From the IMG/VR virus record IMGVR_UViG_3300028920_000039, positions 71,047-135,046 of that record: DNA of 64,000 nucleotides, one strand, 5' to 3'. Below, in pieces: positions 12,942-31,116 of the stretch. This DNA is from a virus. A program made the translations under genes and the position numbers. Every line of letters starts with the position of its first letter. The first letter of the stretch is position 1. The notes beneath the pieces are model-generated. The model searched no databases. It saw nothing but the letters and a program-made list of their open reading frames with translations, and was not told the DNA's origin.

Positions 12942-14990
12942 ATGACCACCGCGGCGACTCCGGCTATTGATTATACAGCGAGGGACTTCCTTACAATCAA
13001 GGAAGCACTCAAAGAGCATTTGAAAGCCAAGTTCCCGACGACTTGGCGAGACTTCTACGAGTCCAGTGCAGGTATTGCAATCCTTGATTTGATTGCTTAC
13101 AGCCACGATGTTTTGAGCTTTGGGCTTGATTATACAGCCAATGAGCTGTATCTTCCGACGGCGCGAGACAGAGATTCGGTCCTGCTCTTGGGTCGGCTGG
13201 TTGGTTATCAGTTGCGCACTGCAACATCTGCTTCGGTTGTTTGCACTTCTCGAATCGATTCTACCTACACAGAAGGCATCATCATTCCTGCTGGCTCCAC
13301 TATCAAGAGCACAGGCAATGTTGATTTCGTGACAACTGAGGATGCGCGGATTGAGGCTGGTTCCGTAGTTGGTACAGTTACTTTTGTTCAAGGCGTCAAT
13401 GTCACAGAGAACTTCTCGTCTGATGGTTCAGCCTTTCAGAAGGTTAATCTAACCAGGTATTCGGTGGTACAGGGCACCGTGTCAGTTTTGGTTGATGGTG
13501 ATGAATGGACTGAGGAGACGTCACTGGCGTATGCTGGTGCTAACAGCAACGCTTTTTCTGTTGAGTATGCTGAGGATGGCGTCGCTACAGTGGTATTTGG
13601 TGATGGTACTAGCGGAAGGGTTCCTCCGGTGGGTTCTAACATCGAGGTCACATATCGAACAGGTGGTGGCTTATCTGGTAATATTGCTTTGAATGAAATC
13701 AGCGGAACCGTCCAAGGCTACCGGGAACTTGTGAGCCCTACTGCTTGGGTTACAGTTAATATTCTCAATGATGCACAGAGAGGTGCCGGCGGTGAGGAAG
13801 CCGAGTCAGTATCTCACGCCAAGTTGTGGATTCCGCCTTGGATCAGAGCAAACGGTCGAGCGGTAACCGAAACAGACTATGACGCTCTCGCCAATGCTTT
13901 CTCAGATTCTACCTACGGCGCACCAGCATTTGCTAAGTCGAAGCTGAAGCAAGAGATTCCTGAGCTGAATACGGTCGAGCTGTATGTCTGGGCGCGTGAT
14001 TCAGGCGGTGATATTGTAACGCCGTCTCAGGGGCTTAAGGACGCGCTTGACACCTACTTTAACAACAACGGGACAGGTTCAGTCAAGTGCATTTGTACTC
14101 ACACAGAGGTGGTCGACGGGCTGATTGTTTACATTGATGTGAGCATAGCGATCCGGGTTGCCACATCGTATGTCTCTGCCGGTGTCATCACAGAGGTGCA
14201 AACGACTATCGAATCGCTGTTCGATTCTTCTGAGGTCGCTCCGGGCCAAGACTTTCGGTTGAGTGCTCTATATGAAGCAGTTCACTCACTGGCTGGTGTT
14301 GACTACTGCTTGGTTCGTAGCCTGGTCGCTTCTTACATCACTACAGAGATAGTAGGGGTAGGAGATGATACTGACGTTACTTTCACATCCACATTGGATC
14401 TTGATCCTGGGCTTGAGGTGGTTCCGCATACTGTCAGGATGTACTACGGTGCAGAGACAGAAGTCCTAACGGATGATGGTGAAGGGAATCTCCTCGACTC
14501 GATCCAGACCGTCAAAGGATCTATCGACTACGAGACAGGCTCTATCACAGGCATCTTCGCTTCAGCGCCGGCAAGCGGTGCTTCGGTTTATGCTGAGTAT
14601 CGCCACAAACTCGACTATGCTCGTGGTGAGGTGGAAGACACTGGCGACGGGACGACAACAATATTTGAAGGTGCTGTCACCTACCCTCCTGTGAACCCTT
14701 ATGATCCTACCACAGGGCAGAAAGGCATCGCTTTCAGCGATGGCAACCAGGTCATTTTGGATGATGGAGACGGGAATCTGGTTGATGACCCAACCGACCC
14801 TTTGTCGTCGAACAGAGGCTTAATCGATTACGGAACAGGGGGCTACACCTTGCGGTTTCCCAACCCCCCTCCGAATAACGCTGAGATCCGCAGCACTTAC
14901 ATGCAGATCTTAGAGACCGATTCGCAGGATATTCCGATAGAGAAGAGCCAGATAGCAGTTAAAGGTCTGATCACCATCTCGACACTATGA
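12942..14990 (+). CDS. baseplate wedge protein (gp6/gpJ-like)
   Basis: 'DYTARDF', 'NELYLPTARDRDSV', 'VVFGDGTSGRVPP', 'RAVTETDY'; two inserted 'DDGxGNL...IDYxTG' domains. Confidence 0.9.
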   Translation: MTTAATPAIDYTARDFLTIKEALKEHLKAKFPTTWRDFYESSAGIAILDLIAYSHDVLSFGLDYTANELYLPTARDRDSVLLLGRLVGYQLRTATSASVVCTSRIDSTYTEGIIIPAGSTIKSTGNVDFVTTEDARIEAGSVVGTVTFVQGVNVTENFSSDGSAFQKVNLTRYSVVQGTVSVLVDGDEWTEETSLAYAGANSNAFSVEYAEDGVATVVFGDGTSGRVPPVGSNIEVTYRTGGGLSGNIALNEISGTVQGYRELVSPTAWVTVNILNDAQRGAGGEEAESVSHAKLWIPPWIRANGRAVTETDYDALANAFSDSTYGAPAFAKSKLKQEIPELNTVELYVWARDSGGDIVTPSQGLKDALDTYFNNNGTGSVKCICTHTEVVDGLIVYIDVSIAIRVATSYVSAGVITEVQTTIESLFDSSEVAPGQDFRLSALYEAVHSLAGVDYCLVRSLVASYITTEIVGVGDDTDVTFTSTLDLDPGLEVVPHTVRMYYGAETEVLTDDGEGNLLDSIQTVKGSIDYETGSITGIFASAPASGASVYAEYRHKLDYARGEVEDTGDGTTTIFEGAVTYPPVNPYDPTTGQKGIAFSDGNQVILDDGDGNLVDDPTDPLSSNRGLIDYGTGGYTLRFPNPPPNNAEIRSTYMQILETDSQDIPIEKSQIAVKGLITISTL

Positions 14991-14991
14991 C

Positions 14992-17528
<2,537 letters not shown>

Positions 17529-17532
17529 TACA

Positions 17533-18399
17533 ATGGCATACGATTCGCAGATACGTTTAGATTACCACAAACCACTCCTTATTGATGGTAAGCCGATGTT
17601 GGAGTGTTGTTGTGATCCGTGCTATTGGCCTGTGATAGAAGATTTGTGGCCACCCAACAACTACACTCAATATGGCACCACAGCTACTCATCCTTTCTGG
17701 TGTTACGTGGATTATAGGTTCTGTGATTGGGTGAAGCTTGATGTTTATGCTGGATCGGGATGTACAGGTTTTTTAGGAGGGGACTGGATATTCACAACTT
17801 ACTCTTCTGCAACGAACTGGCTAACGATCACTGCTAGAGAAACCGTTGCACCTTTCAACCCCATTCAGTTTCCTTCTGGTACTACTATTTATTGGAAAGT
17901 TACTGCTTACAACAATTGTGGTGGCGAACATCGATTTACATTCGGACCCTGCAGAAAATGGACTTATATAGGTGATACAGGCAATGATTGCAACAACTGT
18001 GTGCCCAAATTGCCGAACAATGTCACAGTCATATTTTCCAACATGACAGGGTCATTCACTCTTTTTCAGAACAAGAGTCCTGTAGTGTGTTCCTATACTT
18101 CATATTGTCACTGGGAGAAGGTGGGGGGAGATTTGGGGTATTTCTATGTGGGTCTTCCTCCTACAATTCCTGTAGGCAGAAGGGTTGAGGTTGATGTGGA
18201 TGCAAATGGCATATGGAGAGTGTATGTGCTTCATAGTTACTCGCCTACAGGCTTGTTTTCTTGTTTCTGCCGTTGGCGCCATGGCAATCCTGGCTGTCCT
18301 TGTACCAGCCCCCCTCTAATCACGATCCCTTACAGTGCAGATCTACAGTGGTGCTCGGGCACCACAACCACTCAAGCCAACATAACGGTGGCTGTATGA
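17533..18399 (+). CDS. Cys-rich putative fibre/receptor-binding protein with FN3-like domain
   Basis: 'ECCCDPC', 'TTIYWKVTAYNNCG' FN3-like strand; many Cys, Trp and Thr residues. Confidence 0.5.
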   Translation: MAYDSQIRLDYHKPLLIDGKPMLECCCDPCYWPVIEDLWPPNNYTQYGTTATHPFWCYVDYRFCDWVKLDVYAGSGCTGFLGGDWIFTTYSSATNWLTITARETVAPFNPIQFPSGTTIYWKVTAYNNCGGEHRFTFGPCRKWTYIGDTGNDCNNCVPKLPNNVTVIFSNMTGSFTLFQNKSPVVCSYTSYCHWEKVGGDLGYFYVGLPPTIPVGRRVEVDVDANGIWRVYVLHSYSPTGLFSCFCRWRHGNPGCPCTSPPLITIPYSADLQWCSGTTTTQANITVAV

Positions 18400-19029: not shown

Positions 19030-22000
19030 ATGGCTATACGCTACTACTGTGGAGACGGTTGGAAAACCGTTTCCTTTGCTCGCAAGGATATGGGCGCAGA
19101 TGCTTATCTATTCTGCCCCGGTCCTTCATTGGAGCATGTGTCGGATGCTGACATCCATGTTCCGGGTGTGATGGTATTTGCTGTCAACACTGCTTACCCT
19201 CGAATTCGACCCGATGTCTGGATAGGAATGGACGTCAAGGAGAAGTGTTACGACAAAGCTCTCTGGAGTGAGCCTTTCAGAAAGATCTGTCGAGCCGGGC
19301 GTTCGAAGGCAGGGGTGGACGGTAAGAAGATCTGTGAGTTCCCTGAGGTGTACTGGGCTGATGTTTCTGGTGATAACATCAAGGATATTTTCAATGGGCG
19401 GGCCCATGATTCTTGCTTTGTTTACATGCATAATACCTTAACAGTTGCTTGTCATATCATGGTGTGGATGGGGGCCAAGAGGATCCATTTCGTCGGTTGT
19501 GATCAGGACAATTCGAAGAAGGACTATCATGACAATCGCAAGTTGCATGATCGTGACAGAGAAGAGAACTTCCGCCTGTACAAGAAGCAGACAAAGTTTC
19601 TACGGCAATTCATGACGTTAGGTCTCCAGCATGGCATTGAGTGTATTTCTTGTACCCCGGGTTCGCCGATAAATGAGTTCATGGACTACGTTCCTCTTCA
19701 GGAGGCCTTGCGTGTTTCTCAGGAGAAGTCGCCAAAGCGTGGCTACAGTGAGATTCTGAATACACGAGAGGTGGAGCGCAAGCAGCTTCAGCAGTGGGGC
19801 ACACCTGAGCTTGGTAGAGGTGTGGTAGTAGCCTTCAATGAGAACATGGAGTGGATGGGGGAATGGTGGTGGGAGAATCTGCGAAGGCATGTGGATGTGT
19901 CCGCACCGGTTGCATTTGTTGATCTAGGAATGTCGCCTCCAATGCGCAAATGGTGTGAGAACAGAGGGCGTATCATTGATTTCACTTGGTCTCCGATTCG
20001 TCCTGACGGTGACAAGAAAACGTTTCGAGTAGAGCATGGCTGGAAGCCTTTCGTCTTTTTCAAGTCGCCGTTCAGGGAAACATTGTTCCTCGATGTTGAC
20101 TGTGAAGTAGTAGGCGATGTGCTATCGGTGTTTGAGCATCTTGGAAAGAACCGTTTCGGGATCGCTAAGGACCAGTTGTACCATCAGTTGAAATCGAAGC
20201 AGGAACTCTTGCCCGGAGAAGTGATGCACAATAGCGGTGTGTTGGCTGTTAGGCATGGCTCAAAGATCGTCGAGCAGTGGGCCAAGGCTATTATTGATGT
20301 AGGTGTTGATGGATGGAGAGACAATGATCAGCCTATTCTCAACAAAGTACTCACCACATCCGGTATCGAATACGCAGAGATTCCGCCGGAGTACAACCTG
20401 CTAGCTCCGTATGCTCAGAACTGGAAGAGCCGATGCAAGGCTGAGGTTGTCACTTCACCGAAGGTGCTTCATCGGTTGACATCACATCCTCATTCTTTCA
20501 ACACGCTTCGAACTATTCTTGAAGAGCGCTTTTGTGTAGACGGTATCTGGCTAAGAGATGCAGATATCTTCCTCAAGTGTTTGTGGGCAAACGAAGCGAT
20601 GGCAGATAAGGGTGTGGTGATCGGAGTTGACGCTAACCAAGAGTGGATGATACCATGGTGGGTTGAGAATTATCGTAGGCATAACAATTACCCTGTGTTG
20701 GTAGCCGATTTCGGGTTGACGGATGATGGGATCGAGCTTTGCCGCCAGCTGAACCTTGGAGTATCGGCGACCGTTTCACTTGAAGGCCACGGTTGGTTCA
20801 AGAAGCCACTCGGTTGTCTTCAGACGATATTCAAGAAGACTGTATGGATGGATACAGATGTCGAAGTTCGAAAGGATATCGGTCCGCTGTTTGACTACAG
20901 TGAGAACAACATGTTTGGCATCACATACGACCGCGGTACCCCTCAGCAGTACAAAGATGCCATGCCTTGGGACGCGACTATCTACAACAGCGGTTGTATC
21001 TCGTATCGTCACAACGACCCTCTTATTCAGAAGTGGGCTATGATAACAGTGATGACCCACGAGCTGAAACCACAGCCTGGGAAGTTGTTCTGCGTCTGTG
21101 GTGACCAAGAAACGTTGGCGATGGCTATTCGTCGTTACGCTAAACATCGAATTCACAGGATACCGAAGGAGGACTTTGCCCTTCGGCTGAGCAGCGATCC
21201 AGATGACTGCATTGCCAAACACTGGACTGGTCCGACAGGTAAGAAGGTCATCAAACAGCAGATGGCGGATTCTCGTAAGGACATCGGGGTGATGGTGGGT
21301 CTTCTGGACGAGGACACTGAATGGTTGCTTGAATGGTGGTATGCCAACTACAAGCGCTACAACGACCTGCCTGTGTGTTTTGTTGACTGTGGCATGAGCG
21401 ATTCGGCACGAGCTTTTTGTGAGGAACGAGGCCGGATTGTAAAGCTGGTCACCAAACCCCATATCAAGAGCTGGTTCAGAAAGCCGTGGGCACTTCTCGA
21501 AACACCATTTCAGCGAACACTTTTCATTGAGACTGATGTCGAAGTCAGAGGCAACATCAGAGATCTTATCGTGAATACAGGCGGTCTTGGCATGGTGTAC
21601 GAGCGTTCCACTAAAGAAGAGTCGGTTGCTTTGAAGAGACATTTTGGTGATAAGAGGCGGCATAATGTTCCTGACGATGCGCTTGTATACGATGGCGGTC
21701 AGCTTGTTTTCAACAGTGACGAGCCAATGCTACAGAGGTGGGCCGATGCCGTTGAAGAAACCAAGCACCTGCCTGCATGCAACACTGACAACAGCGGTCC
21801 GGTGGAGAACGGGTTTGTTGGCGACCATGAGATTCTTGCCAAGGTAATGTATGAGATGCGTAAAGGGGTTCACATTATGCCACGGTGTGCCAATAAGTAC
21901 TATGGGCCGCCAAAGGACAGTCTCTTGTATCACAGATGTGGCTACAAAGGGCAAGGAAAGGATTCCATCAAGCGTCAGACAGAACGGAAGCAGTTGCCCG

Positions 22001-23316
22001 AAACCTCGAAACCAAAATCTGTTGTTGAGCAGGATAAAGGTGTGCTTGTCGGCATTTTGTATGAGGACACAGAGCAGATGTTGGACTGGTGGATGGGCAA
22101 CTACTTGTGGCACAACTCATTGCCTGTTTGCTTCGTAGGCTACAAGACAACTCCTGAAACCAGGGAGAAGTGCGAGGCATGGGGCATCTTCATCGATATT
22201 AGCGACATCAATTTCGTGGAAGGTCGTTGGAAGCGCCCCTTTGCTATGCAGCGGACGCCTTTCAAGCATACCGTGTGGATAGATATCGATTGTGAGGTGA
22301 GGGGTAATGTAGGACGGCTTCTCGATATGAAGTCCCCTTCTCTTATGTTTGAGCGTCGAACTGAAAAGCTGACTATGGTGTCTAATCTACAGACAACTGC
22401 TGATCCACGTCAGTGGGCTAATGTGCCTTCTCAGGCAAAGGCTTTTGATGCTGGGGTAGTGCGTTTCGACAAAGGGTGCGATCTTATTGCTAAATGGTGT
22501 GAGCGATGCAAGATTGTCAGAAGGCTACCGGTAGAAATGGTAGAGGATGAGGTCTTTGCTGAGGAAAACGGTTTCGTCTATGATCAGGAGGTGCTGTCAC
22601 TGATTGTGCATGAGAATCAGGTACCTGTTGGTTGGATCCCAAACAAAAATTGTCGAAACAAGCATTACGGCGACAGCGGTGTCTTTCAGGTGTATCATCG
22701 TTGTGGTGGTGGGCTTGAGGGCAAGGGCGGTATCCGAAAGCAGATTCGGGAGCATCCGATTGTCATCAGACACAACAGTTTGGTGCTGGCTTGCCGAAAA
22801 GATCTTCTTGCTCGGATGGGGCAGAATGTGGTTTGTTGTGAAGTAGGAGTTGGTGAAGGAGAGCTCTCTGTCAAGATCAACTCTATGCTTCATCCTAAGA
22901 AACTGCATCTGGTGGACCTATGGAAGCACCAGGAAGAGGGTTACGAAGACGAAAACAATGTGAGTGATGAAGAGCACGCTCGTCGAAAGGCGCATGTTGA
23001 AGGCATATTCAAGAACTGCGCCAATGTTCAGATTCATCAGGGCTGGTCTACCGATGTCGTTGCACAATTCCCTAATCACTACTTTGATTTTGTGTACATT
23101 GATGCTAACCACTACTTCGATCCGGTACTGGCTGATCTCGAAGCATACGCTCCTAAGGTCAAAAAGAATGGGTTCCTATGCGGTCACGACTATGCTGGTT
23201 TGAACCCCATGTTTGAGGTTGAGGAGGCTGTCCAAGAGTTTTGTAACAGGCACAACTGGCGGTTACTCTACACCACAGATGAAGAGTGGCCCAGCTTCGT
23301 TTTGAGGCGGTTATGA
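19030..23316 (+). CDS. 1428-aa multidomain glycosyltransferase: Maf/DUF115-like domain, four tandem GT-A domains, class I SAM methyltransferase
   Basis: N-terminal 'CPGPSL...FAVN...PDVWIGMD...IHFVGCD'; four repeats of 'GV.V....EW...WW..N...PF..T.(F/W).DxD.EV...(N/D)xG...DQE'; C-terminal 'EVGVGEG...VDLW...FVYIDANH...GHDY'; SD GAGGAG. Confidence 0.85.
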   Translation: MAIRYYCGDGWKTVSFARKDMGADAYLFCPGPSLEHVSDADIHVPGVMVFAVNTAYPRIRPDVWIGMDVKEKCYDKALWSEPFRKICRAGRSKAGVDGKKICEFPEVYWADVSGDNIKDIFNGRAHDSCFVYMHNTLTVACHIMVWMGAKRIHFVGCDQDNSKKDYHDNRKLHDRDREENFRLYKKQTKFLRQFMTLGLQHGIECISCTPGSPINEFMDYVPLQEALRVSQEKSPKRGYSEILNTREVERKQLQQWGTPELGRGVVVAFNENMEWMGEWWWENLRRHVDVSAPVAFVDLGMSPPMRKWCENRGRIIDFTWSPIRPDGDKKTFRVEHGWKPFVFFKSPFRETLFLDVDCEVVGDVLSVFEHLGKNRFGIAKDQLYHQLKSKQELLPGEVMHNSGVLAVRHGSKIVEQWAKAIIDVGVDGWRDNDQPILNKVLTTSGIEYAEIPPEYNLLAPYAQNWKSRCKAEVVTSPKVLHRLTSHPHSFNTLRTILEERFCVDGIWLRDADIFLKCLWANEAMADKGVVIGVDANQEWMIPWWVENYRRHNNYPVLVADFGLTDDGIELCRQLNLGVSATVSLEGHGWFKKPLGCLQTIFKKTVWMDTDVEVRKDIGPLFDYSENNMFGITYDRGTPQQYKDAMPWDATIYNSGCISYRHNDPLIQKWAMITVMTHELKPQPGKLFCVCGDQETLAMAIRRYAKHRIHRIPKEDFALRLSSDPDDCIAKHWTGPTGKKVIKQQMADSRKDIGVMVGLLDEDTEWLLEWWYANYKRYNDLPVCFVDCGMSDSARAFCEERGRIVKLVTKPHIKSWFRKPWALLETPFQRTLFIETDVEVRGNIRDLIVNTGGLGMVYERSTKEESVALKRHFGDKRRHNVPDDALVYDGGQLVFNSDEPMLQRWADAVEETKHLPACNTDNSGPVENGFVGDHEILAKVMYEMRKGVHIMPRCANKYYGPPKDSLLYHRCGYKGQGKDSIKRQTERKQLPETSKPKSVVEQDKGVLVGILYEDTEQMLDWWMGNYLWHNSLPVCFVGYKTTPETREKCEAWGIFIDISDINFVEGRWKRPFAMQRTPFKHTVWIDIDCEVRGNVGRLLDMKSPSLMFERRTEKLTMVSNLQTTADPRQWANVPSQAKAFDAGVVRFDKGCDLIAKWCERCKIVRRLPVEMVEDEVFAEENGFVYDQEVLSLIVHENQVPVGWIPNKNCRNKHYGDSGVFQVYHRCGGGLEGKGGIRKQIREHPIVIRHNSLVLACRKDLLARMGQNVVCCEVGVGEGELSVKINSMLHPKKLHLVDLWKHQEEGYEDENNVSDEEHARRKAHVEGIFKNCANVQIHQGWSTDVVAQFPNHYFDFVYIDANHYFDPVLADLEAYAPKVKKNGFLCGHDYAGLNPMFEVEEAVQEFCNRHNWRLLYTTDEEWPSFVLRRL

Positions 23317-25697
23317 AGAGAACCCGTTGGCTGAACAATCCAATCTCCCATCCTTCTCGTTATCATCCTGTTTACCGAACTGACGAAGGCGAGTACAAGG
23401 TATTCAGGATGCGCGGTAAGAAGATAGTGATGGATGTCAACACTCTGGACCTTTTTCAACCACCAGACAACGGAGATCCGGTGGCTCCGCCGATGCCTGT
23501 CTTACCTCAGTTTGTTCGTCCTCACATGCGAACTATCAAGCAGTTGGCACTGAATGTTACGCATGCTTGTCAGTTACGGTGTGACTACTGCTATCTGTCT
23601 CACTTTTACCCAGAGATGGAAGCCAAGATGGGTGTTGACACAGCTATCAGAGCAGTGGATGAGCTCTTTAACCACTCGGCACTGGATAAACTGCCTGACG
23701 ATTACACAGGCAGGGGTCCAGGCATTTCCTTCTTTGGTGGCGAACCTCTTCTTAATTTTCCTCTCATAGAAGCAGTTGTAGCACACGCGAGAAGCCGGTC
23801 AAAACACTTTAGATTCGGTGTTACCACTAACGGGGTAGCAGTGACACCTTCTATAGCAAAATTCCTGGCAGAGAACAAATTCTCAATGATTGTATCGGTT
23901 GATGGCCCCAAAGCCTTACATGATAAGCACCGAAAGTTTCCTGATGGCAACGGTTGTTTTGATTCAGTAGTTGAAGGCCTGGAGATGTTGCGTGATGCTG
24001 GTGTTGAGAAAATCACTCTGCGTTCAACTTTCTTACCTGATGAAACAGAGCTGCTGGAGCGAACCAAGTATCTGAACGAACTGTGCGACAACAATTATGC
24101 TCAAAATGTTTCAATTGAGCCTGCTTGCTTATCGGAAGGCTGTGCTTTTGATGGTGAGGTGCGGTTCACGGTTGCAAATGTAAAAAAGCTGCAGAAGGAG
24201 TATCTTGTTGTTGCTGATTGGTTGGCTTCTCGAATCATTGATGATGAGAAAGCACGGTTTCACAACATCATGTCATATGTGGATCGGTTGGTCAACAAGA
24301 AGCAGTATTGTACCGAGTGTGGTGCCGGGGTAGGTTTTTTGGCAGTTTCCCCTGTAGGCAAGATCTGTGCGTGCCATCGAGAGATGAATTCGGAGATTGG
24401 CGATCTTGAAAGAGGTGGTGTTTGTGAGAAGGCTCGAGCTCCGTGGTTTGACAATAGATATTACCTTTGTCAGAAGTGCACAAGATGCAAGATTCGAAAC
24501 CTCTGCGGAGGGCCATGTCGAGAACACAACATTACGGCAAAAGGTGATATGCACACTCCCGATCCTGTTTTTTGTGAGTTCTACAACATCTGGGCGAAGG
24601 CAGCAGTGTCGATTCTAGACCAAGTGGAGCACAAGAAGTTACAGGAGCTGTTTCCTGCTTACAAGAAACGACAACCTACCATAGTCAGGAAAGCTGTCGA
24701 GGAGGAGTACGCATTCGTTAGAGAAGCGGGTGGCTTTGGGGATATTGTGAGTATAGGTGCTGCGGCTCGATGCTTGAAGCACGAGAAGCCAGATTGTCAT
24801 ATCACTTTGTATGTCCCGGGTGAATTCAAGAATGTGGTACAGCACTTGAAAGGTGTGGATGAGATGGTGAGTCTGGGTTCTCTACGTGAGTTGGTTGACG
24901 TCAGACGGAAGCGGGGCACACCTTTCAGTCGAGCCGATTATCCCTACTTGGAAAAGGTGGATTCGAACAAGAAGCTCGTCGATATGTGGGGCCCAGCACA
25001 TCTATACGAGAGCACCGCGGAAGACTTTCTTAAACAAACACGGTCACAGATCTTCGCAGAAAAGGCAGGCTGTAAAGATGTGAGTCACGCTATTCCTTAT
25101 TGGAAGGTGACGTCAAAGGAGCGCAAGGAAGCTAGTGAGTACCTTAAGACCTTGCCGCTACAGACAGTGATAGCCTTGGCGCCAAGAGGCACCGATGTGA
25201 ATCGTTCACTGCCAAAAGACACACTACTGGCTCTTCTTGATAAGTTGAAAGGGCGGAGCGTGCTCTTCCTTGACTGTGTTGCGCCTGATCTGCCGGAGAG
25301 ATTTGAGAATGTGCACTTTCCTGAAGGCTCGCTGTCCCAGGCGGCAGCTCTTATAGAGCAGAGCGATATACTGATCTCTGTGGACACTTCTTTGCTTCAC
25401 ATCGGTGTAGGTGTTGGCACTCCGACTCTGGGCATCTTCAACTCCACCGATCCGTCACCGTATGAGGGTTTCTACCCCGGTCTTCAGACAGTATGGTGGA
25501 AGGGCGATACCCCAAATTGCATGTTTCCTTGTAATCGTTCTCGAAAGAAGGGTTACGGACCTTGGTGCAAAGACGCTTGTGATCGCCGTAAGAATCTTGG
25601 GATCAAGGAGATCATGGAAGGCCTCTCTCGAATTCAGCAACTCGCTAACAACCCTGCGTTGCAGATGAAGCGAGTAGAGAGGATGAAGCATGGTTAG
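23313..25697 (+). CDS. radical SAM/SPASM peptide-maturase-like enzyme fused to a C-terminal GT9 (heptosyltransferase-like) domain
   Basis: CxxxCxxC 'CQLRCDYC'; 'FFGGEPLLNF'; SPASM 'CGAG...KICACH...CTRC...CGGPC...C'; GT9 'GGFGDIVS' and 'ISVDTSLLHIGVGVGTPTLGIF'; ATG 23313 overlaps the upstream TGA. Confidence 0.88.
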   Translation: MKRTRWLNNPISHPSRYHPVYRTDEGEYKVFRMRGKKIVMDVNTLDLFQPPDNGDPVAPPMPVLPQFVRPHMRTIKQLALNVTHACQLRCDYCYLSHFYPEMEAKMGVDTAIRAVDELFNHSALDKLPDDYTGRGPGISFFGGEPLLNFPLIEAVVAHARSRSKHFRFGVTTNGVAVTPSIAKFLAENKFSMIVSVDGPKALHDKHRKFPDGNGCFDSVVEGLEMLRDAGVEKITLRSTFLPDETELLERTKYLNELCDNNYAQNVSIEPACLSEGCAFDGEVRFTVANVKKLQKEYLVVADWLASRIIDDEKARFHNIMSYVDRLVNKKQYCTECGAGVGFLAVSPVGKICACHREMNSEIGDLERGGVCEKARAPWFDNRYYLCQKCTRCKIRNLCGGPCREHNITAKGDMHTPDPVFCEFYNIWAKAAVSILDQVEHKKLQELFPAYKKRQPTIVRKAVEEEYAFVREAGGFGDIVSIGAAARCLKHEKPDCHITLYVPGEFKNVVQHLKGVDEMVSLGSLRELVDVRRKRGTPFSRADYPYLEKVDSNKKLVDMWGPAHLYESTAEDFLKQTRSQIFAEKAGCKDVSHAIPYWKVTSKERKEASEYLKTLPLQTVIALAPRGTDVNRSLPKDTLLALLDKLKGRSVLFLDCVAPDLPERFENVHFPEGSLSQAAALIEQSDILISVDTSLLHIGVGVGTPTLGIFNSTDPSPYEGFYPGLQTVWWKGDTPNCMFPCNRSRKKGYGPWCKDACDRRKNLGIKEIMEGLSRIQQLANNPALQMKRVERMKHG

Positions 25698-26535
25698 TTG
25701 TATGATAGCTGTGCTAGTTAGAGACAGATTTCCTTTGACCAAGTTGTGTTGTGATTGGATCTGCGATAGTGACGATTGTGAAGGCATCTATTTCAACCTT
25801 GTGGCTTTCGACGATCGCAGCACAGATCCTCTCATGTTCAGATACCTTGAAGAGCGGTTTCAGGGCAATGTGGTACCTGTTTCTACGGATGACAGGATGT
25901 CCGCCCCTGCGCGAGTAGGCATGGCTCGTCAGACTGTTGTGAAGCTGTTTCTCAGTGGTGCAGGCTGTGACTATCTGTTTCTTCTGGACAGTGATGTGAT
26001 TGTTACCAAGGCTACTATCAACGAAGCCATTCGTGATTACAATCTGCTGGCTGAAAAGATGCCTGTTGGTGGCTATACACTTTACGCATTGAACCACATT
26101 GAAAAGACACACCCATGGAACAGTAATAAGATCTTCGCCGAGATCAGCTTGACAGGGGATGCTCATTTGTTGTATCGCCGAGACCACCTAGAAGAGGTCG
26201 GTAATCATTTCAGTGTCCGCCCCGGAGGATTTGCGGATCAGCAGATTCATGCCATCTATGATCATGGTCTGAAGTTCTGGACTCGCATCACACCTCCGTA
26301 TGAAGTTCAGCATCTCGGGTTCGGAGAAGGTGTGAGTTTCTGTTGGGATTGGGATGGCATCGCTCCTTTTTGGGTAAGAAGGCCGTATTGGAGCCATACT
26401 GGAACAAAAGGAGTTATCAATGTTACGGGGTTCGATGTATTACAATATGCTGACCTTGTAAATCGGTACGGTGGTCTTGAAGCACCGAAACTCTATCTGG
26501 AAATGATGAAGGAGAAAACCAATGAATGTTCGTGA
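25690..26535 (+). CDS. GT-A fold glycosyltransferase (GT2-like)
   Basis: 'VAFDDRSTD', 'YLFLLDSDVIV', 'VQHLG'. Confidence 0.75.
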   Translation: MVSCMIAVLVRDRFPLTKLCCDWICDSDDCEGIYFNLVAFDDRSTDPLMFRYLEERFQGNVVPVSTDDRMSAPARVGMARQTVVKLFLSGAGCDYLFLLDSDVIVTKATINEAIRDYNLLAEKMPVGGYTLYALNHIEKTHPWNSNKIFAEISLTGDAHLLYRRDHLEEVGNHFSVRPGGFADQQIHAIYDHGLKFWTRITPPYEVQHLGFGEGVSFCWDWDGIAPFWVRRPYWSHTGTKGVINVTGFDVLQYADLVNRYGGLEAPKLYLEMMKEKTNECS

Positions 26536-26980
26536 GGAAGTGGACCATCGTTTGCGTGGTCGAATTAAGATTGTAGCTGAACATGAGGTAACCAAGGAGA
26601 AGAGGGTTATTTGTGAGCAGAATCTGGTGGTGAACGGTACTTACAGTCAGCTTTCCCGTCTGTTGTCAGGCGATCTGGTCGACAACACTATCACCAAGCT
26701 GGACTTCGGTACTGATGGCACTGCCCCTACAATTTACGAAGTAGCGCTTCAAGGTCCACTGGGCATCTGGTTGACAGTTTCCGATACCTACCCGTCAATT
26801 ACGACAGTAACATTCGGAGCAACCTGGGCGTCAGATCAGGTCAACACCAATTCCATTCGAGAAGTGGGTCTTTTCACTGAAGACAATACATTGTGTACCA
26901 GGGCGGTTTTTCAGGAAATGAAGAAGTCAGAAGGGTGGACATGGACGATCTCCTGGACGCTCTACTACACCCTTCCATAA
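26522..26980 (+). CDS. tail-collar/fibre-attachment-like small protein (paralogue 1)
   Basis: 'QNLVVN...ITKLDFGTDGTAP...IREVGLF...LCTRAVF' resembles phage tail-collar-fibre N-terminal domains. Confidence 0.6.
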   Translation: MNVREEVDHRLRGRIKIVAEHEVTKEKRVICEQNLVVNGTYSQLSRLLSGDLVDNTITKLDFGTDGTAPTIYEVALQGPLGIWLTVSDTYPSITTVTFGATWASDQVNTNSIREVGLFTEDNTLCTRAVFQEMKKSEGWTWTISWTLYYTLP

Positions 26981-26990
26981 AGGAGATAAC

Positions 26991-27422
26991 ATGAAAGGCA
27001 AGTTTGTCCTCACTGCGATTGCTGTAGACAGCGGATATCGTCAGAAATTGGTGAAGGTTCAGAACACCATTCTTAACAGTATGTATACGAAGTTGCTTCG
27101 CCTGCTCGGCGGTGGTACAGGCTCGTCTCCTGTTGATCGTATGCAGTTCGGAACCGGCACACTTTCACCAGCCCCCGACCAAGAATTCCTGCAGAAGCCG
27201 ATCAACCCGATCAAGAATGTTACTCCAATAGTTGACGCTGCTAACTTTGAGGTGGAGTTTACCGCTGCACTCCTTTCAGATGAAGGCAACGGATTTCCGA
27301 TTGGAGAAGCCGCATTGGTTTGTGCCGATGACACCCTGGTTGCCAGGTCTACTTTTGATGTCCGAACCAAGACGTCGAGTTACATATTCGACTTCTCGTG
27401 GACCGTTACGCTCAAGTCGTAA
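26991..27422 (+). CDS. tail-collar/fibre-attachment-like small protein (paralogue 2)
   Basis: 'QNTILN...VDRMQFGTGTLSP...IGEAALV...LVARSTF'; aligns by eye with the previous gene. Confidence 0.6.
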   Translation: MKGKFVLTAIAVDSGYRQKLVKVQNTILNSMYTKLLRLLGGGTGSSPVDRMQFGTGTLSPAPDQEFLQKPINPIKNVTPIVDAANFEVEFTAALLSDEGNGFPIGEAALVCADDTLVARSTFDVRTKTSSYIFDFSWTVTLKS

Positions 27423-28142: not shown

Positions 28143-28985
28143 ATGCAGATACGTACTCGGTCAACAGGATCCAAACACTTTGGAATCAAGCCCTACCCTC
28201 TGCTGGTGACAAATGCGTCAGTGAGCAAGAAGAAGGGCGAGGCGCTCTTGTTTTCAGCCTACACAAAGTGGCATGTGCCAGCTGAAAACGGTAAGTTCAG
28301 AGTTGAGCCTGAACACAGGTATGGGTTCAATCCGCTTGATGTTGTTATCACAGACGCTATCAAGAGGTGGCTTGATGAGGAAGGCTACAACCTTCCAGAG
28401 TTGGCGCTGGACAGATACACAATGCTCCAGAAAGGTCTTCACACCTCAGACGACGGAGTTGTAAGAAGGTACAAGGAGGAAGGCGTGATGGTAGTTGAAG
28501 AATCCGAATGCCCCGCGTTTAAGAGATACTGGAATCCGGACACCTCCGAATGCCAGGCTTGCAAGAAACATTTTCCTGATGAGTACTTCGCTTGCAAGAA
28601 GATTTGCGAGAAGAAGGCCCAGGACAAGACGAAACCTCAGAAACCCACGTCGTCTGAGACGCCAGATTCCGAAGCGGAGCCAGAGGAGAGCCTTGAGACA
28701 GCATTAACATCACAGAGCAACCAATCTGCAAGTTCATTCAAGGGGTTTCGTAAAGGTTCCCGGGCCCAGGTTTTGATAGACTACTTTGCGGCTACCGGAT
28801 CGGTTAGCTTTTCTGAGGCAGCACAGCACCTTGCTACTTCTTGTGATATCGGATTAGGGAAGGCAATGGAGAACGTCAAGGGTTACGTTAGTGAGTGGAA
28901 GAACGGAAAGTGGAGCGGGAAGGTGATGGATTTCCCCTTCACAATCACAGCGGATAAGGAAACAATACGTTATCAGGAGGGCTGA
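28143..28985 (+). CDS. putative DNA-binding protein with C4 zinc motif and C-terminal winged helix
   Basis: '[18 protein letters not shown]...C'; '[13 protein letters not shown]...[10 protein letters not shown]'. Confidence 0.5.
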
Positions 28986-29641
28986 TGAAATCGGTAGTGA
29001 TCCTCTCCGGAGGAATGGACTCGACAACTCTGATCTATGATGTTGTAAGCCAAGGCGGTGAGGTTGAGGCACTCAGTTTCAACTACGGACAGCGACATTC
29101 CAAGGAGTTGTCATGTGCTGCCGTCACCTGTCAGAAGCTGAGCATTCCTCACAAGGTGGTTGATCTAGGTGAGGTAGGAAAAGAGCTTTTGCAGGGTAGC
29201 GCACTCACAAGTGACATTGATGTTCCTGAGGGGCACTACGAAGAGGGGAACATGAAGTTGACGGTGGTGCCCAACCGTAACATGATCATGCTTTCTCTTG
29301 CCATCGGATACGGTGTTTCCATCAAGGCTGATGCCGTTTACTACGGTGCTCATTCTGGCGACCATGCTATCTACCCGGACTGCCGTAAGGAGTTCGTTGA
29401 GGCTATGCAGAAGGTGGCAACTCTTTGCGACTGGCATGAGCTTGAACTCAAGGCTCCGTATCTGGATATGGACAAGGGGGATATCGTCATTCGAGGTGTC
29501 ATGGAGCTAGGTGTTCCTTATGAGGACACTTGGACTTGTTACAAAGGTTTGGAAAAGGCCTGCGGTAAGTGCGGGTCATGTCAGGAACGCTTGGAGGCCT
29601 TCGAAAAGGCAGGGGTGGAGGATCCGGTTACTTATGATTGA
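28985..29641 (+). CDS. queC: 7-cyano-7-deazaguanine synthase
   Basis: '[11 protein letters not shown]', 'FNYGQRH', 'VPNRNMIML', 'YPDCR', 'TWTCY...CGKCGSC'. Confidence 0.97.
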
Positions 29642-30194
29642 TGAAACCAAGCTTGTCAAGGGCATACGCCTGTTTTTTGAAGGTCTAGGCCTCGGCGCGG
29701 AACTGGCCGACCAGCATTTTAGGGATACTCCAAAACGTGTTGCTAAGGCCTGGAAAGAGCACTTTGGTGCTGGGTATGAGCTAGACCCCAAGAAGTATCT
29801 GAACGTTGAGTTCTCTGATGACTACGACCAGATGGTTGTGGTGAAGGACATCCCTTTCATGAGCCACTGCGCCCATCATATAGTTCCTTTTTGTGGTGTT
29901 GCCAAGATCGGCTACCTTCCTGATGAGAAGCGTATCACAGGTTTGAGCAAATTGGCAAGGGTTCTGAATGGATATGCTCAGCGGTTGCAGATTCAAGAGC
30001 AGCTCACTCGACAGGTGGCTTCGGCGATCCAGGAAGTGTTGCGGCCAAAAGGAGTAGGGGTGGTGCTGGAAGCTGAGCATTTCTGCATGACACGTAGAGG
30101 GGTGAAGGCTCCTGGCAGTATGACCATCACCAGTTGCTTGCTGGGGAGTTTTCGGGATGAACCAGAGACCCGAGCTGAGTTTCTGAACATGTAG
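29634..30194 (+). CDS. folE: GTP cyclohydrolase I
   Basis: 'DTPKRVAK', '[10 protein letters not shown]', 'GLSKLAR', 'LQIQEQLT', 'HFCMTRRGV'; start taken as ATG 29634. Confidence 0.96.
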
Positions 30195-30203
30195 GAGTCA
30201 GTT

Positions 30204-30668
30204 GTGTTGCGAATTGCGTGGGACGATTACCATGATATGGTTAGGGTTCTTGGTAACAAGATCAGGTCCAAGATTAAGCCAGGTGAGGATGGGAAGATAC
30301 ATATCATCGGCTTGCCTCGTGGCGGCACACTTGTTGCTTTGCATTTGACCTACATGTTTGAAGAGTTCTATGCTCACTTTGATGCCTTCAAGACAGCCCA
30401 CTCTCTTACATGCGAGCACACCGTCATTATCGATGATGTTTTGGAAACAGGAAAGACGCGTGTCAAGCTCATGAATATACATAACGCATCCTCAATCGGC
30501 ATGTTTGCTGTGCTCGTAGACAAGTCTTTCCTGTATACCACGTCTCCTTCTGATGTAAGTATAATGCGACTGGAGAGCAAGATCTGGGTGGAGTTTCCTT
30601 ACGAACGGGAAGATGACCCGAAGGAGATCAAGAGCAGAGAGGAAAGAGGGTATGAAGCAGACGGATGA
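30204..30668 (+). CDS. type I phosphoribosyltransferase (purine PRTase-like)
   Basis: 'IGLPRGG', PRPP-binding 'VIIDDVLETGKT', 'WVEFPYE'. Confidence 0.85.
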   Translation: MLRIAWDDYHDMVRVLGNKIRSKIKPGEDGKIHIIGLPRGGTLVALHLTYMFEEFYAHFDAFKTAHSLTCEHTVIIDDVLETGKTRVKLMNIHNASSIGMFAVLVDKSFLYTTSPSDVSIMRLESKIWVEFPYEREDDPKEIKSREERGYEADG

Positions 30669-31116
30669 TGTAAGTGGTGTGAAGAGCCTCGGCTCCGGCA
30701 AAACCGACTACCCAAACCAAGGCGGATGCAACCCCGATGTCCTGGAGAAGTTTCCGAACAAGTTCTCTCAGAGACGATATACAGTGACGTTCTCTTCGCA
30801 GGAGTTCACATCCCTCTGCCCGAAGACAGCCCAGCCCGATTTCGCTACTATCACTATCACCTACGAACCCGATGAGTGGTGTGTTGAGTCCAAGGGTCTG
30901 AAGCTATATCTGTTCAGCTATCGGTCGGAGGGGTCGTTCATGGAGACGATTATCAATAATATCCTTACTCATCTAGTGGAGCTCGTCAAACCACATATAA
31001 TGACAGTAGTAGGTGATTTCGCTCCTCGTGGAGGCATAGGCTTGGTGGTGGAAGCCTGCTACGTTCGGGATAAAGGTGTTATTACCTCATCAAAGGCAAG
31101 ACAGAAGGTATCATAA
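30652..31116 (+). CDS. queF: preQ0 nitrile reductase (preQ1 synthase), single-domain type
   Basis: 'EFTSLCPKTAQPDFA' with catalytic Cys/Asp; QueF motif 'ESKGLKLY'; 'FAPRGGI'. Confidence 0.92.
   Translation: MKQTDDVSGVKSLGSGKTDYPNQGGCNPDVLEKFPNKFSQRRYTVTFSSQEFTSLCPKTAQPDFATITITYEPDEWCVESKGLKLYLFSYRSEGSFMETIINNILTHLVELVKPHIMTVVGDFAPRGGIGLVVEACYVRDKGVITSSKARQKVS

Follow-up and report, generated by a model that had tools for sequence, protein, structure and literature searches.

The locus considered here raises the question of which substrate is modified by a phage enzyme that joins a radical SAM (rSAM)/SPASM maturase to a GT9 glycosyltransferase in one polypeptide. The analysed stretch of DNA (64,000 nucleotides, hereafter the window) is derived from an approximately 135-kb, distantly T4-like myophage. 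The enzyme and its parts are located as follows:

23313..25697, + strand: fusion gene P0001, 794 amino acids, with a radical SAM/SPASM maturase domain and a GT9 glycosyltransferase domain (intact reading frame, HMMs, homologues, AF2 model)
23385..23459, + strand: N-terminal three-strand mini-domain, residues 25-49 (modelled secondary structure, alignment to the start of CteB, invariant columns)
23541..24302, + strand: radical SAM core, residues 77-330 (PF04055, E 7e-19 over residues 81-246; alignment to CteB C104/C108/C111)
24309..24587, + strand: SPASM domain, residues 333-425 (invariance in 13 sequences; residue-wise CteB alignment, ligands according to PMC10177961)
24648..24698, + strand: basic interdomain linker, residues 446-462 (pLDDT <50 at residues 451-462; split reading frames in loci L003-L007, L010, L015, L019 and L030)
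24702..25694, + strand: GT-B/GT9 domain, residues 464-794 (PF01075, 33.3 bits; 1psw, E 9e-5; Z 21-23 to 3tov, WaaF and WaaC; motif alignments)
25518..25580, + strand: four-Cys knuckle C736-x3-C740-x11-C752-x3-C756 in the GT9 C-lobe (invariant columns; low-pLDDT insertion)

The fusion enzyme and its two halves

The rSAM-GT9 fusion is real. The reading frame is translated without an internal stop, and its ATG at 23313 is preceded by GAGG at a distance of 6-9 nt, overlaps the stop of the upstream gene as ATGA and coincides with the start point of the homologues in the alignment. The same fusion is common to 12 full-length metagenomic proteins (41-50% identity) and to the IMG/VR locus L002, and because it is kept across independent metagenomes, it is not a frameshift artefact. 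In about 20 further phage loci, the rSAM and GT9 parts are encoded by neighbouring separate genes, and the gene boundary of these split forms lies at the position of the linker. Of 27 close loci, about 22 have the two parts fused or directly adjacent, and the fused forms are a single clade nested within the split ones. Moreover, three homologues contain inteins sited at Fe-S ligand cysteines, which fits genes under strong functional constraint, where inteins typically occur. The initial annotation had proposed a single polypeptide in which a basic linker is followed by a full GT-B/GT9 domain, and it had considered a stop or frameshift separating the domains. HMMs, profile searches, an AF2 model (pLDDT 82.9) and at least 13 conserved fused homologues agree with the fusion, the linker is present with low model confidence, and neither a stop nor a frameshift lies between the domains. 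No prior description of such an enzyme in phages was found in the literature.

The assignment of the C-terminal half is supported by sequence and structure. The Pfam model Glyco_transf_9 scores 33.3 bits (cut-off 22) with a match that spans residues 670-718 only (49 residues), and a profile search matches WaaF (1psw, E 9e-5). The AF2 model resembles the GT9 structures 3tov (Z 23.3), WaaF (21.6), WaaC (21.1) and TibC (19.4). Residues of catalytic type are invariant, namely G476-D477 in 'GD' and D691/H696 in 'VDTSxLH', and they align to 3tov and WaaC. The four-Cys knuckle of the C-lobe is presumed to be a metal site; the C-lobe of TibC carries an inserted four-Cys iron finger (PMC4358343). The phage encodes no genes of the heptose-nucleotide pathway.

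In the N-terminal half, all ten Fe-S cysteines are present, in keeping with the complete CxxxCxxC and SPASM sets reported initially. The CX3CX2C motif (C86/C90/C93, nt 23568-23591) aligns to C104/C108/C111 of CteB. Seven SPASM cysteines (C336, C354, C389, C392, C398, C402 and C421) do not vary in 13 sequences and pair one-to-one with the cluster ligands of CteB (alignment; ligand list from PMC10177961). From this pairing, C336, C354 and C402 are predicted to ligate AuxI, three residues only with an open site as in CteB, and C389, C392, C398 and C421 are the predicted AuxII ligands. Model residues 25-439 superimpose on CteB residues 1-450 with Z 36.4 and an rmsd of 2.7 Å over 388 residues (VIA), and the sequence/profile match to CteB has an E-value of 2e-37. 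The NCBIfam models for PapB, QhpD, nif11 and SCIFF score 167-194 bits (PapB 194, QhpD 188, SCIFF 167) and anSME scores 91. All scores are far below the curated cut-offs, and membership in the SCIFF, PapB, QhpD or anSME families was rejected. Thus, the label 'SCIFF-maturase-like' holds for the CteB-like fold and fails for family membership (167 bits, cut-off 425), while the clustering with anaerobic sulfatase maturases envisaged as a counter-finding does not apply, the thioether-forming peptide maturases scoring far higher. The suggestion that the N-terminus retains the strands of a RiPP-recognition element (RRE) without its helices is reproduced by the AF2 model: three strands (28-33, 36-41 and 47-49), aligned to the start of CteB, are followed by a disordered linker up to residue 76, and RRE helices are absent from the modelled N-terminus. 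D41, N43 and L45 are invariant within 'MDVNTLDLF', and the mini-domain is a remnant of an RRE, which in this protein is truncated.

The tail module and its cysteine repeats

The fusion gene is translationally coupled inside a module with the order baseplate J, two Tail_P2_I-like fibres, enzymes and tail-collar-like proteins. The gp6/J-like wedge protein identifies it as a tail/baseplate module:

12942..14990, + strand: baseplate wedge, gp6/J-like (phrog_219, E 4e-47; PF04865; about 25% identity to gp6 of T4-like cyanophages)
14992..15720, + strand: short Tail_P2_I-like paralogue P0122, 242 amino acids (PF09684, E 2.7e-7; comparison with L081)
15720..17528, + strand: tail fibre P0121, 602 amino acids (PHROG tail-fibre and collagen matches; homologues in 12 related loci)
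16422..16514, + strand: six-Cys motif of P0121, residues 235-265 (kept in L002, L081 and L014 at the same place and with the same pattern)
19030..23316, + strand: multi-domain protein, 1428 amino acids, with GT8, a weak sialyltransferase-like match and Methyltransf_24 (Pfam, PHROG); its stop overlaps the fusion start
25690..26535, + strand: GT2-like (GT-A) glycosyltransferase, 281 amino acids (8-nt overlap with the fusion gene; alongside the fusion in 15 loci)
26522..27422, + strand: two paralogous small proteins of phrog_5417, 152 and 143 amino acids (E 1e-16; co-occurrence in 14 loci)

The 1428-residue protein is an accessory part, since it is found in just three related loci. For the GT2-like protein, PF00535 reaches 26.4 bits with the homologue in L004 (cut-off 23.3) and just E 0.22 with the window copy. 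The relatives of the phrog_5417 pair in Atlas are all viral and some carry PF12571 Phage_tail_fib (14-15% share); both are probably tail-collar or fibre-related structural proteins.

In the fibre P0121, a Tail_P2_I-like N-domain is followed by the six-Cys C-x3-C motif, by two domains that contain cysteines and by a collagen-like Gly-X-Thr stalk. Each cysteine of the motif has a Glu at +5, and the motif occupies the same place with the same pattern in four diverged fibres. In this phage the motif is short, with its six cysteines. The paralogue P0122 has a two-Cys C-terminal end (nt 15682-15702), and its counterpart in L081 terminates in SCIATCEIGSD. The upstream Tail_P2_I-like fibres of relatives contain C-[E/Q/T]-x-x arrays in which as many as 125 cysteines follow in succession, and a single protein of 735 residues has 151 cysteines. 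Among about 26 IMG/VR loci that have a close homologue and sufficient upstream DNA, about 21 encode fibre or baseplate proteins in which six or more cysteines form a chain at a spacing of 4-5, whereas chains do not exceed six in about 50 loci with distant rSAM genes that served as controls. Two close loci, L022 and L024, have short chains only (5 and 3). The loci with this association belong to related phages with one tail module in common and are therefore not fully independent.

The composition of the repeats is directional. In the C-x3-C units (n=1140 units, 28 proteins), the residue at +1 is most often E (45%), followed by Q (28%) and T (14%). At chain ends, +5 is E/Q in 74% as against a background of 13% (n=134 ends), and position -3 of the first cysteine is E/Q in just 28%. 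Similarly, E/Q follows the first cysteine in 48% and later cysteines in 80%. This asymmetry at the chain edges indicates that the repeat unit may be read as C-x4-[E/Q].

Proposed function and competing explanations

The likely substrate is the 602-residue tail fibre rather than a small peptide. We propose, at roughly even chances, a bifunctional virion-tailoring enzyme whose rSAM half makes Cys-to-Glu/Gln thioethers in the fibre, which the GT9 half glycosylates. In favour of thioether chemistry, the nearest relatives of the rSAM half in structure and sequence are thioether-forming peptide and protein maturases. This half would hold three [4Fe-4S] clusters, AuxI being ligated by three cysteines as it is in CteB. 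After cleavage of SAM, the side chain of a Glu, Gln or Thr would lose an H atom to the enzyme, and the sulfur of a nearby cysteine would be bonded to the carbon concerned in a thioether of the ranthionine type. The step would be repeated down the C-[E/Q/T]-x-x stretch behind the Tail_P2_I-like domain of the fibre proteins, and the edge statistics predict that Cys(i) is paired with Glu/Gln(i+5). In this phage, the targets would be the six-Cys motif of P0121 and the two-Cys tail of P0122. The crosslinks may stiffen the fibre neck, and unlike disulfides, which cannot form there, thioethers would be usable in the reducing cytoplasm. The GT9 half, held at the same substrate through the fusion, would move a host-made nucleotide sugar, possibly ADP-heptose, onto the fibre, acting together with the GT2-like neighbour and the 1428-residue GT/methyltransferase protein. 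Gene fusion, adjacency and context suggest that both chemistries are coupled on one substrate. Since relatives of the enzyme lie beside tail fibres with Cys-x-x-x repeats, such phages probably crosslink and glycosylate fibres of their own by a chemistry known mainly from small bacterial peptides.

It is unlikely that the fibre undergoes another chemistry, such as conversion of Cys/Ser to formylglycine, epimerisation or C-C crosslinking, or that the cysteine arrays are metal or disulfide modules and another residue is modified. SPASM enzymes are chemically diverse, as the structural matches to 8vpo (TigE) and SuiB illustrate, anSME ranks second among the structural matches (Z 29), and Cys-rich arrays could bind metals or form disulfides after lysis. 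However, every one of the best sequence matches forms Cys thioethers, the three-Cys ligation of AuxI is that of CteB, PapB and Tte1186, and the strict pairing of Cys with E/Q at +5, with its directional asymmetry, fits donor-acceptor pairs.

Remodelling of the host surface is improbable as well. Here, the GT9 half and its GT2-like, GT8 and methyltransferase neighbours would alter the LPS core or O-chain of the host, for example excluding other phages, and the rSAM half would tailor a sugar or lipid or be unrelated to the fibre. GT9 enzymes are classically directed to the LPS core, the characterised GT9 structures matched are LPS heptosyltransferases, the phage depends on host sugar nucleotides, and in pelagimyophages and cyanomyophages, cassettes of GT and radical SAM genes within the hypervariable tail-fibre regions have been read as LPS modification (PMC7029224). 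Nevertheless, the rSAM half is like peptide and protein maturases and unlike the sugar-modifying enzymes BtrN, DesII and BlsE (Z 15-18, compared with 36 for CteB), the enzyme genes are flanked on both sides by structural fibre genes, the close link to CXXX-repeat fibres is not accounted for, and a protein-directed GT9 enzyme, TibC, is known (PMC4358343).

Finally, a glycosylated ranthipeptide, made from a small diffusible SCIFF-like precursor of phage or host, as the 'candidate peptide' of the initial annotation would suggest, is very improbable: the CteB/SCIFF-type fold, the NCBIfam RiPP-maturase matches and the small Cys-containing reading frames adjoining rSAM genes in the more distant phage loci L031-L039 and L045-L052 would suit it, but the whole 135-kb genome contains no small Cys-repeat precursor gene, its C-x3-C-E chains being confined to two fibre proteins, the leader-binding RRE helices are missing from the model, the conserved neighbours are structural proteins, and the cut-offs of SCIFF, PapB and other families are missed widely.

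Relationship to known systems

The proposed fibre-tailoring enzyme shares its fold, its ten aligned Fe-S cysteines and the three-Cys AuxI site with the SCIFF/ranthipeptide maturase CteB (PDB 5WGG/5WHY) and the homologues Tte1186 and PapB. Cys thioether chemistry is predicted here too, and the repeated C-x3-C resembles SCIFF cores. However, the identity to CteB is about 26% over structurally aligned residues, and the window protein has a three-strand RRE, a GT9 fusion, a gene within a phage tail module and, in place of a small precursor, a 602-residue structural protein as its presumed substrate. The NCBIfam family TIGR04115 ('radical SAM peptide maturase, CXXX-repeat target family') is defined bioinformatically and has predicted CXXX-repeat targets; these are bacterial peptides rather than tail fibres, and with 84.7 bits (cut-off 350) the window protein belongs to another lineage.

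The cassettes of pelagimyophages and cyanomyophages are similar in lying in tail-fibre hypervariable regions of large marine-type T4-like myophages. Their genes were interpreted as auxiliary genes for LPS modification or 'antibiotic synthesis' and were not linked to Cys-repeat fibres or virion modification (PMC7029224; PMC12801897). WaaC, WaaF and TibC (BAHT family) share the GT-B fold and the GD and VDTGxxH-type motifs with the GT9 half at about 11-16% identity. TibC provides the precedent of a GT9-like enzyme that hyperglycosylates repetitive proteins and has a four-Cys metal finger in its C-lobe, whereas the window GT9 is fused to an rSAM domain, lacks a beta-barrel and spaces its cysteines as C-x3-C-x11-C-x3-C (C339/342/358/370 in TibC).

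The closest precedent is the CrpC/CrpA pair of Methanococcus voltae, in which CrpC modifies CrpA, a Cys-repeat protein of 29 kDa, with ranthionine links (PMC13692751, 2026). As with QhpD and QhpC, rSAM/SPASM thioethers are formed on whole proteins with repeated Cys motifs, and as in the fibres, the Cys-rich region comes after an N-terminal domain that is shared. QhpD and SCIFF maturases are known to use acceptors of the Glu and Thr types, the motif of CrpA is C-X-X-Q/D (PMC13692751), and the links in QhpC are Cys-Glu and Cys-Asp. In contrast, CrpC belongs to TIGR04463, and the window protein scores 188 bits against the QhpD cut-off of 453. Both known systems are cellular, have no glycosyltransferase and act on substrates that are not parts of a virion, whereas the fibres are built on a four-residue unit in arrays of up to 125 cysteines.

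Genomic context and reading frame of the fusion gene

The 135,046-bp virus record is rated complete by CheckV, and the window covers its last 64 kb. The gene for the fusion protein P0001, which joins a radical SAM/SPASM half to a GT9 half, belongs to a tail module that lies entirely on the + strand and has the following gene order:

12942-14990, + strand: baseplate wedge gp6/J-like protein
14992-15720, + strand: short Tail_P2_I-like protein (P0122)
15720-17528, + strand: 602-aa fibre (P0121) with a collagen-like stalk
17533-18399, + strand: Cys-rich 288-aa protein, directly after the fibre gene
between the 288-aa protein and the fusion gene, + strand: 1428-aa GT8/methyltransferase protein
23313-25697, + strand: fusion gene
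25690-26535, + strand: GT2-like protein, whose homologue in IMG/VR locus L004 passes PF00535
after the GT2-like gene, + strand: two phrog_5417 proteins, viral relatives of which sometimes carry Phage_tail_fib

Structural fibre genes thus flank the enzymes on both sides. With gp6 of T4-like cyanophages and of a pelagiphage, the baseplate protein shares about 25% identity. The 288-aa protein contains 18 Cys (6.2%), including an ECCCDPC motif, matches no family and lacks a homologue throughout the 80 related loci; it may serve as a variable component in receptor binding or at the fibre tip. Elsewhere in the window, QueC (E 2e-65), GTP cyclohydrolase I (E 7e-62) and a QueF-like protein (E 9e-29) are encoded at 28985-31116 (+). 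This block of 7-deazaguanine pathway genes is kept in the related loci L001 and L002 and suggests that the phage DNA is modified with deazaguanine. The gene at 33366-35915 (+) encodes a family A DNA polymerase of 849 aa, in which a uracil-DNA-glycosylase-superfamily domain occupies the N-terminus and a 3'-5' exonuclease domain is also present.

The 794 codons of P0001 are read without interruption from 23313 to 25697 (+). A GAGG precedes the ATG at 23313, which shares an ATGA with the stop codon of the 1428-aa gene upstream, and the 3' end of the fusion gene shares 8 nt with the next gene. The overlaps at both ends thus indicate a translationally coupled operon. A search of 5.8 billion proteins yielded 12 unnamed metagenomic homologues of 775-790 aa that are 41-50% identical to P0001 at 96-100% query coverage. 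The single polypeptide proposed in the initial annotation is therefore borne out by an intact reading frame and by fused homologues kept across independent samples, a conservation that a frameshift artefact would not show. In IMG/VR, 80 phage loci were recovered with the alignment as the query, while a single sequence as the query gave no match. In about 22 of the 27 close loci, the GT9 gene is either fused to the radical SAM gene or located directly downstream of it. The fused form is present in L002 and, with one in-frame TAG, in L001; the split form is found, for instance, in L003-L007, L010, L015, L019 and L030. In a quick maximum-likelihood tree, which was not a careful search, the fused forms are one clade nested among the split forms and the SCIFF maturases occupy a long separate branch. 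The TAG of L001, the closest IMG/VR homologue, is located inside the SPASM domain (L001:5758-5760, RA*WVENR). Recoding of TAG was rejected because other genes of this locus end in TAG; the codon more likely reflects a nonsense mutation or an error of assembly.

Stand-alone GT9 relatives were not recovered from the 5.8-billion-protein set, which reflects a limit of the word index, since split GT9 genes exist in the loci. A pattern-limited scan covering 185,579 species of bacteria and archaea through representative genomes revealed no fused homologue and thus gave no clue to the host. Database proteins of about 800 aa were rejected as alternative fusions because their radical SAM domain is C-terminal, behind an unknown region of 400 aa, and none contains GT9. 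Ten such proteins (P0039, P0048, P0051, P0052, P0054, P0059, P0065, P0069, P0072 and P0077) have a related C-terminal radical SAM/SPASM domain (29-31% identity) behind about 400 residues without annotation and represent a further uncharacterised architecture in the wider family. Likewise, the ORFs of 809-862 aa in L020, L023 and L027 are not GT9 fusions; they are radical SAM genes with inteins:

L020:8720-11149: intein just after the CX3CX2C motif
L023:9749-12337: intein at the SPASM Cys equivalent to C354
L027:9899-12439: intein near the equivalent of C336

These inteins consist of Hint/Intein_splicing and LAGLIDADG or HNH domains and occupy three distinct insertion sites, all at Fe-S ligands, which argues that the enzyme is important to these phages.

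The radical SAM/SPASM and GT9 halves

P0001 matches the Radical_SAM family PF04055 with 69 bits (cut-off 29.5; E 7e-19, residues 81-246), and Pfam also reports Fer4_12. In the alignment of P0001 with its homologues, the CX3CX2C ligands C86, C90 and C93 are invariant, and the barrel is confirmed by structural matches. The SPASM pattern with two auxiliary clusters (CX9-15GX4C ... CX2CX5CX3C ... C) is present as C336...G349-x4-C354, C389-x2-C392-x5-C398-x3-C402 and C421, with all seven cysteines invariant, and the SPASM Pfam profile PF13186 gives no match on P0001. Among the NCBIfam families, thioether-forming maturases rank at the top, with every score far below its cut-off: PapB (NF047865) 194.5 bits vs 340, QhpD (TIGR03906) 188.5 vs 453, nif11-rSAM (TIGR04064) 185.7 vs 519 and the CteB-type SCIFF maturase (TIGR03974) 166.6 vs 425. 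P0001 is therefore filed under none of the CteB-, PapB- or QhpD-type families.

An AF2 model based on the homologue alignment has a mean pLDDT of 82.9. It consists of three N-terminal strands (28-33, 36-41 and 47-49), disorder up to residue 76, the radical SAM/SPASM body, a low-confidence basic linker (451-462) and a GT-B domain (465-793). In VIA-align, residues 25-439 of the model superpose on CteB (5WGG, chain 1-450) with Z 36.4 and an rmsd of 2.7 Å over 388 residues. Hence, the earlier description as SCIFF-maturase-like holds for the structural likeness to CteB, and P0001 is not a member of the SCIFF family. The anaerobic sulfatase maturases, named at the outset as the grouping that would speak against this relationship, are more distant (TIGR03942, 91 bits, cut-off 349; structural Z 29), and RRE-like strands are present. 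The model also agrees with the suggestion that these strands lack their helices: a complete RRE, which binds the leader peptide, comprises three strands and three helices, and in P0001 the strands are followed by a disordered linker.

Based on the ligand list of the CteB auxiliary clusters (PMC10177961) and a phmmer alignment to CteB, C336, C354 and C402 were assigned to AuxI, leaving an open site, and C389, C392, C398 and C421 to AuxII; the neighbouring C333 is not conserved. The same ligand scheme is found in the thioether formers CteB, PapB and Tte1186. Judged from its sequence, P0001 would thus have the three-Cys AuxI with an open site for a substrate Cys that is typical of thioether formers.

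The assignment of the C-terminal half to a GT9/GT-B domain was confirmed. It exceeds the cut-off of PF01075 (Glyco_transf_9; 33.3 bits vs 22), although only over residues 670-718, and has a profile match to 1psw (E 9e-5). Residues 458-780 of the model adopt a heptosyltransferase-type fold (VIA-align; 3TOV, Z 23.3; WaaF, Z 21.6; WaaC, Z 21.1; TibC, Z 19.4). G476-D477, P624-R625 and D691/H696 are invariant; the first pair aligns to 'lGDvi' of 3tov and the last to 'svDtGlsH' of WaaC. We take D13 of the 'GD' motif to be the catalytic Asp of WaaC and the C-lobe 'DTGxxH' motif to be donor-binding. Genes for heptose-nucleotide synthesis (PF01467, PF13580) were looked for in the phage genome and are absent. 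An invariant four-Cys knuckle (C736, C740, C752 and C756) is inserted in the C-lobe. BAHT enzymes (TibC/AAH) have a four-Cys iron finger in this lobe, together with an N-terminal beta-barrel and a beta-hairpin thumb. P0001 has no beta-barrel, the spacing of its cysteines is unlike that of C339/342/358/370 in TibC, and the Z-score of TibC is lower than those of the LPS enzymes. TibC illustrates that GT9-like enzymes with a four-Cys finger are able to hyperglycosylate repetitive proteins (PMC4358343).

Cysteine repeats in the tail-fibre proteins

The fibre and baseplate proteins encoded just upstream of the radical SAM gene in related loci are extraordinarily rich in cysteine:

L018_1591_3438: 615 aa, 131 Cys, spacing exactly 4 in 124 cases
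L016_1460_3667: 735 aa, 151 Cys
L017_87_2828: 913 aa, 133 Cys
L015, two proteins: 850 and 493 aa, 108 and 74 Cys
L027, three proteins: 1071, 382 and 794 aa, 112, 75 and 102 Cys

Several of these share an N-terminal Tail_P2_I-like domain with P0121 and P0122 of the window. Of the 26 close loci with enough upstream DNA, about 21 encode chains of 6 or more Cys at a spacing of 4-5; in contrast, about 50 loci with only distant radical SAM genes have chains of at most 6 Cys. The repeat itself matches no meaningful family in Pfam or NCBIfam. A scan with the alignment of the fibre N-domain found only 7 loci, of which the new ones are too near a contig edge for testing the absence of a radical SAM gene.

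The window fibre P0121 contains a six-Cys motif (16422-16514) about 50 residues after a conserved RPIHVLLR. The pattern C-x3-C-E-x2-C-E-x5-C-x3-C-E-x2-C-E-x3-E is found at the same place in the fibres of L002 and L081 and, minus one Cys of the first triplet, in that of L014. In all four fibres, the motif is located between the N-domain and the collagen-like stalk. Furthermore, SC-x3-CE occurs at the end of the short paralogue, in L081 as well as in the window. A simple ORF scan of the 135-kb genome, small ORFs included, found no C-x3-C-E-type motif in any other ORF and thus no small cognate SCIFF precursor with a Cys-x3-Cys-E chain, which leaves room for a host-encoded one. The stalk (residues about 465-550) is rich in Gly-X-Thr (GDT, GNT, GET) and contains little Pro; the glycosyltransferases encoded nearby could plausibly O-glycosylate its Thr residues. 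A complex prediction of the radical SAM half (1-450) with fibre residues 1-285 scored 0.02 with an uncertain partner fold and is evidence neither of binding nor of its absence.

The residue right after the Cys (+1), counted in 1140 C-x3-C units, is most often E (45%), followed by Q (28%) and T (14%). E/Q follows the first Cys of a chain in 48% and later Cys in 80%. Three residues ahead of the first Cys (-3), E/Q is found in only 28% of cases. The +5 position of 134 true chain ends is E/Q in 74% vs a background of 13%, and each Cys of the window motif has Glu at this distance. Because the array edges are asymmetric in this way, the repeat unit reads C-x4-[E/Q], which predicts links from Cys(i) to Glu/Gln(i+5). 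For comparison, the thioethers of QhpD are Cys-Glu (C-gamma) and Cys-Asp (C-beta), PapB targets CX3D motifs, CteB links Cys32 to Thr37 or Thr34 (reports differ), and CrpA contains C-X-X-Q/D motifs (PMC13692751).

A DNA-level scan of IMG/VR for (Cys-Glu-x-x)5 was unusable as a census of CXXX proteins, returning mostly short 12-nt tandem repeats in tiny ORFs and giant-virus contigs. The matches to (TGYGAR-N6)x5 (L087-L166) include many viral contigs, giant-virus bins among them, with 12-nt repeats that in one frame read as SCEP/SCES-type Cys-Glu in ORFs of very small size. Probably simple repeats of the DNA, they are a trap for such a census. The few long non-simple CXXX proteins are partly on contigs already known to carry a radical SAM gene; others have one nearby (L126, L141) or none on a 17-kb fragment (L097). 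The array protein of L141 (11699-12092, 131 aa, ...CEGSCEGDCEGSCEDTCEGE...; the same protein in L162) is encoded on a 36-kb phage contig, some 0.7 kb downstream from a radical SAM gene with 27% identity, and is a further Cys-repeat and radical SAM pairing outside the main clade. In L031-L039 and L045-L052, distant phage radical SAM/SPASM genes (23-26% identity) are found 0-10 nt from small ORFs of 100-190 aa (e.g. L045:11063-11371) with short Cys chains at a spacing of 4-5; these pairs may be separate phage RiPP-like cassettes.

Candidate functions and comparison with known systems

Alongside the observed domains, motifs, gene context and association with CXXX fibres, we tentatively propose that large environmental myophages use RiPP-type radical SAM/SPASM enzymes, here fused to GT9, to turn C-x4-[E/Q] arrays of up to 125 units, in tail-fibre and baseplate proteins of the same phage, into thioether-ring ladders, and to glycosylate the fibres. 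This would be a widespread and undescribed maturation of virions. The radical SAM half would place ranthionine-type thioethers along the C-x4-[E/Q] segment, and the GT9 half, which its fusion or adjacency would keep at the same substrate, would add a host nucleotide sugar to the fibre. The ladder could take the role of a cystine knot beside the collagen-like stalk and could be formed in the reducing cytoplasm.

It is rather unlikely that the fibre is subject to other chemistry or that the arrays bind metal. Remodelling of host LPS, which we consider unlikely, is the canonical role of GT9 enzymes and the published reading of such cassettes, in which radical SAM/GT genes are taken as LPS or 'antibiotic' auxiliary genes (PMC7029224; PMC12801897), but it leaves the maturase-type radical SAM enzyme and the Cys arrays without explanation. 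A diffusible glycosylated ranthipeptide is very improbable, with no precursor found in the simple ORF scan of the 135-kb genome and the RRE helices missing.

If the crosslinking of fibres is true, they would be insensitive to redox and resistant to protease, and radical SAM peptide chemistry would for the first time act on a viral structural protein. This new type of post-translational modification for virions would matter for the stability of fibres, for host recognition and for the engineering of phages. Moreover, marine myophages carry cassettes of radical SAM and glycosyltransferase genes in their tail-fibre regions that are now regarded as host-LPS/'antibiotic' auxiliary genes and would have to be re-interpreted. 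A natural system processing more than 100 tandem sites per polypeptide would be of interest for peptide and protein engineering, as would a fused crosslinker-glycosyltransferase. The Cys(i) to Glu/Gln(i+5) register, derived from sequence, makes the idea directly testable on a short fibre fragment, and its implications are potentially broad.

Radical SAM thioether crosslinking is familiar from small antimicrobial or signalling peptides. To our knowledge, only few protein substrates are known, namely QhpC and, in 2026, CrpA. A full-text literature search revealed no account of phage fibres being modified by radical SAM enzymes, nor of a fusion of radical SAM and GT9 domains. In its mode of action, P0001 is likened to CteB, PapB and QhpD, although it is a member of none of their families. 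The nearest functional precedent is CrpC/CrpA, in which ranthionine crosslinks are formed at the protein level (PMC13692751, September 2026).
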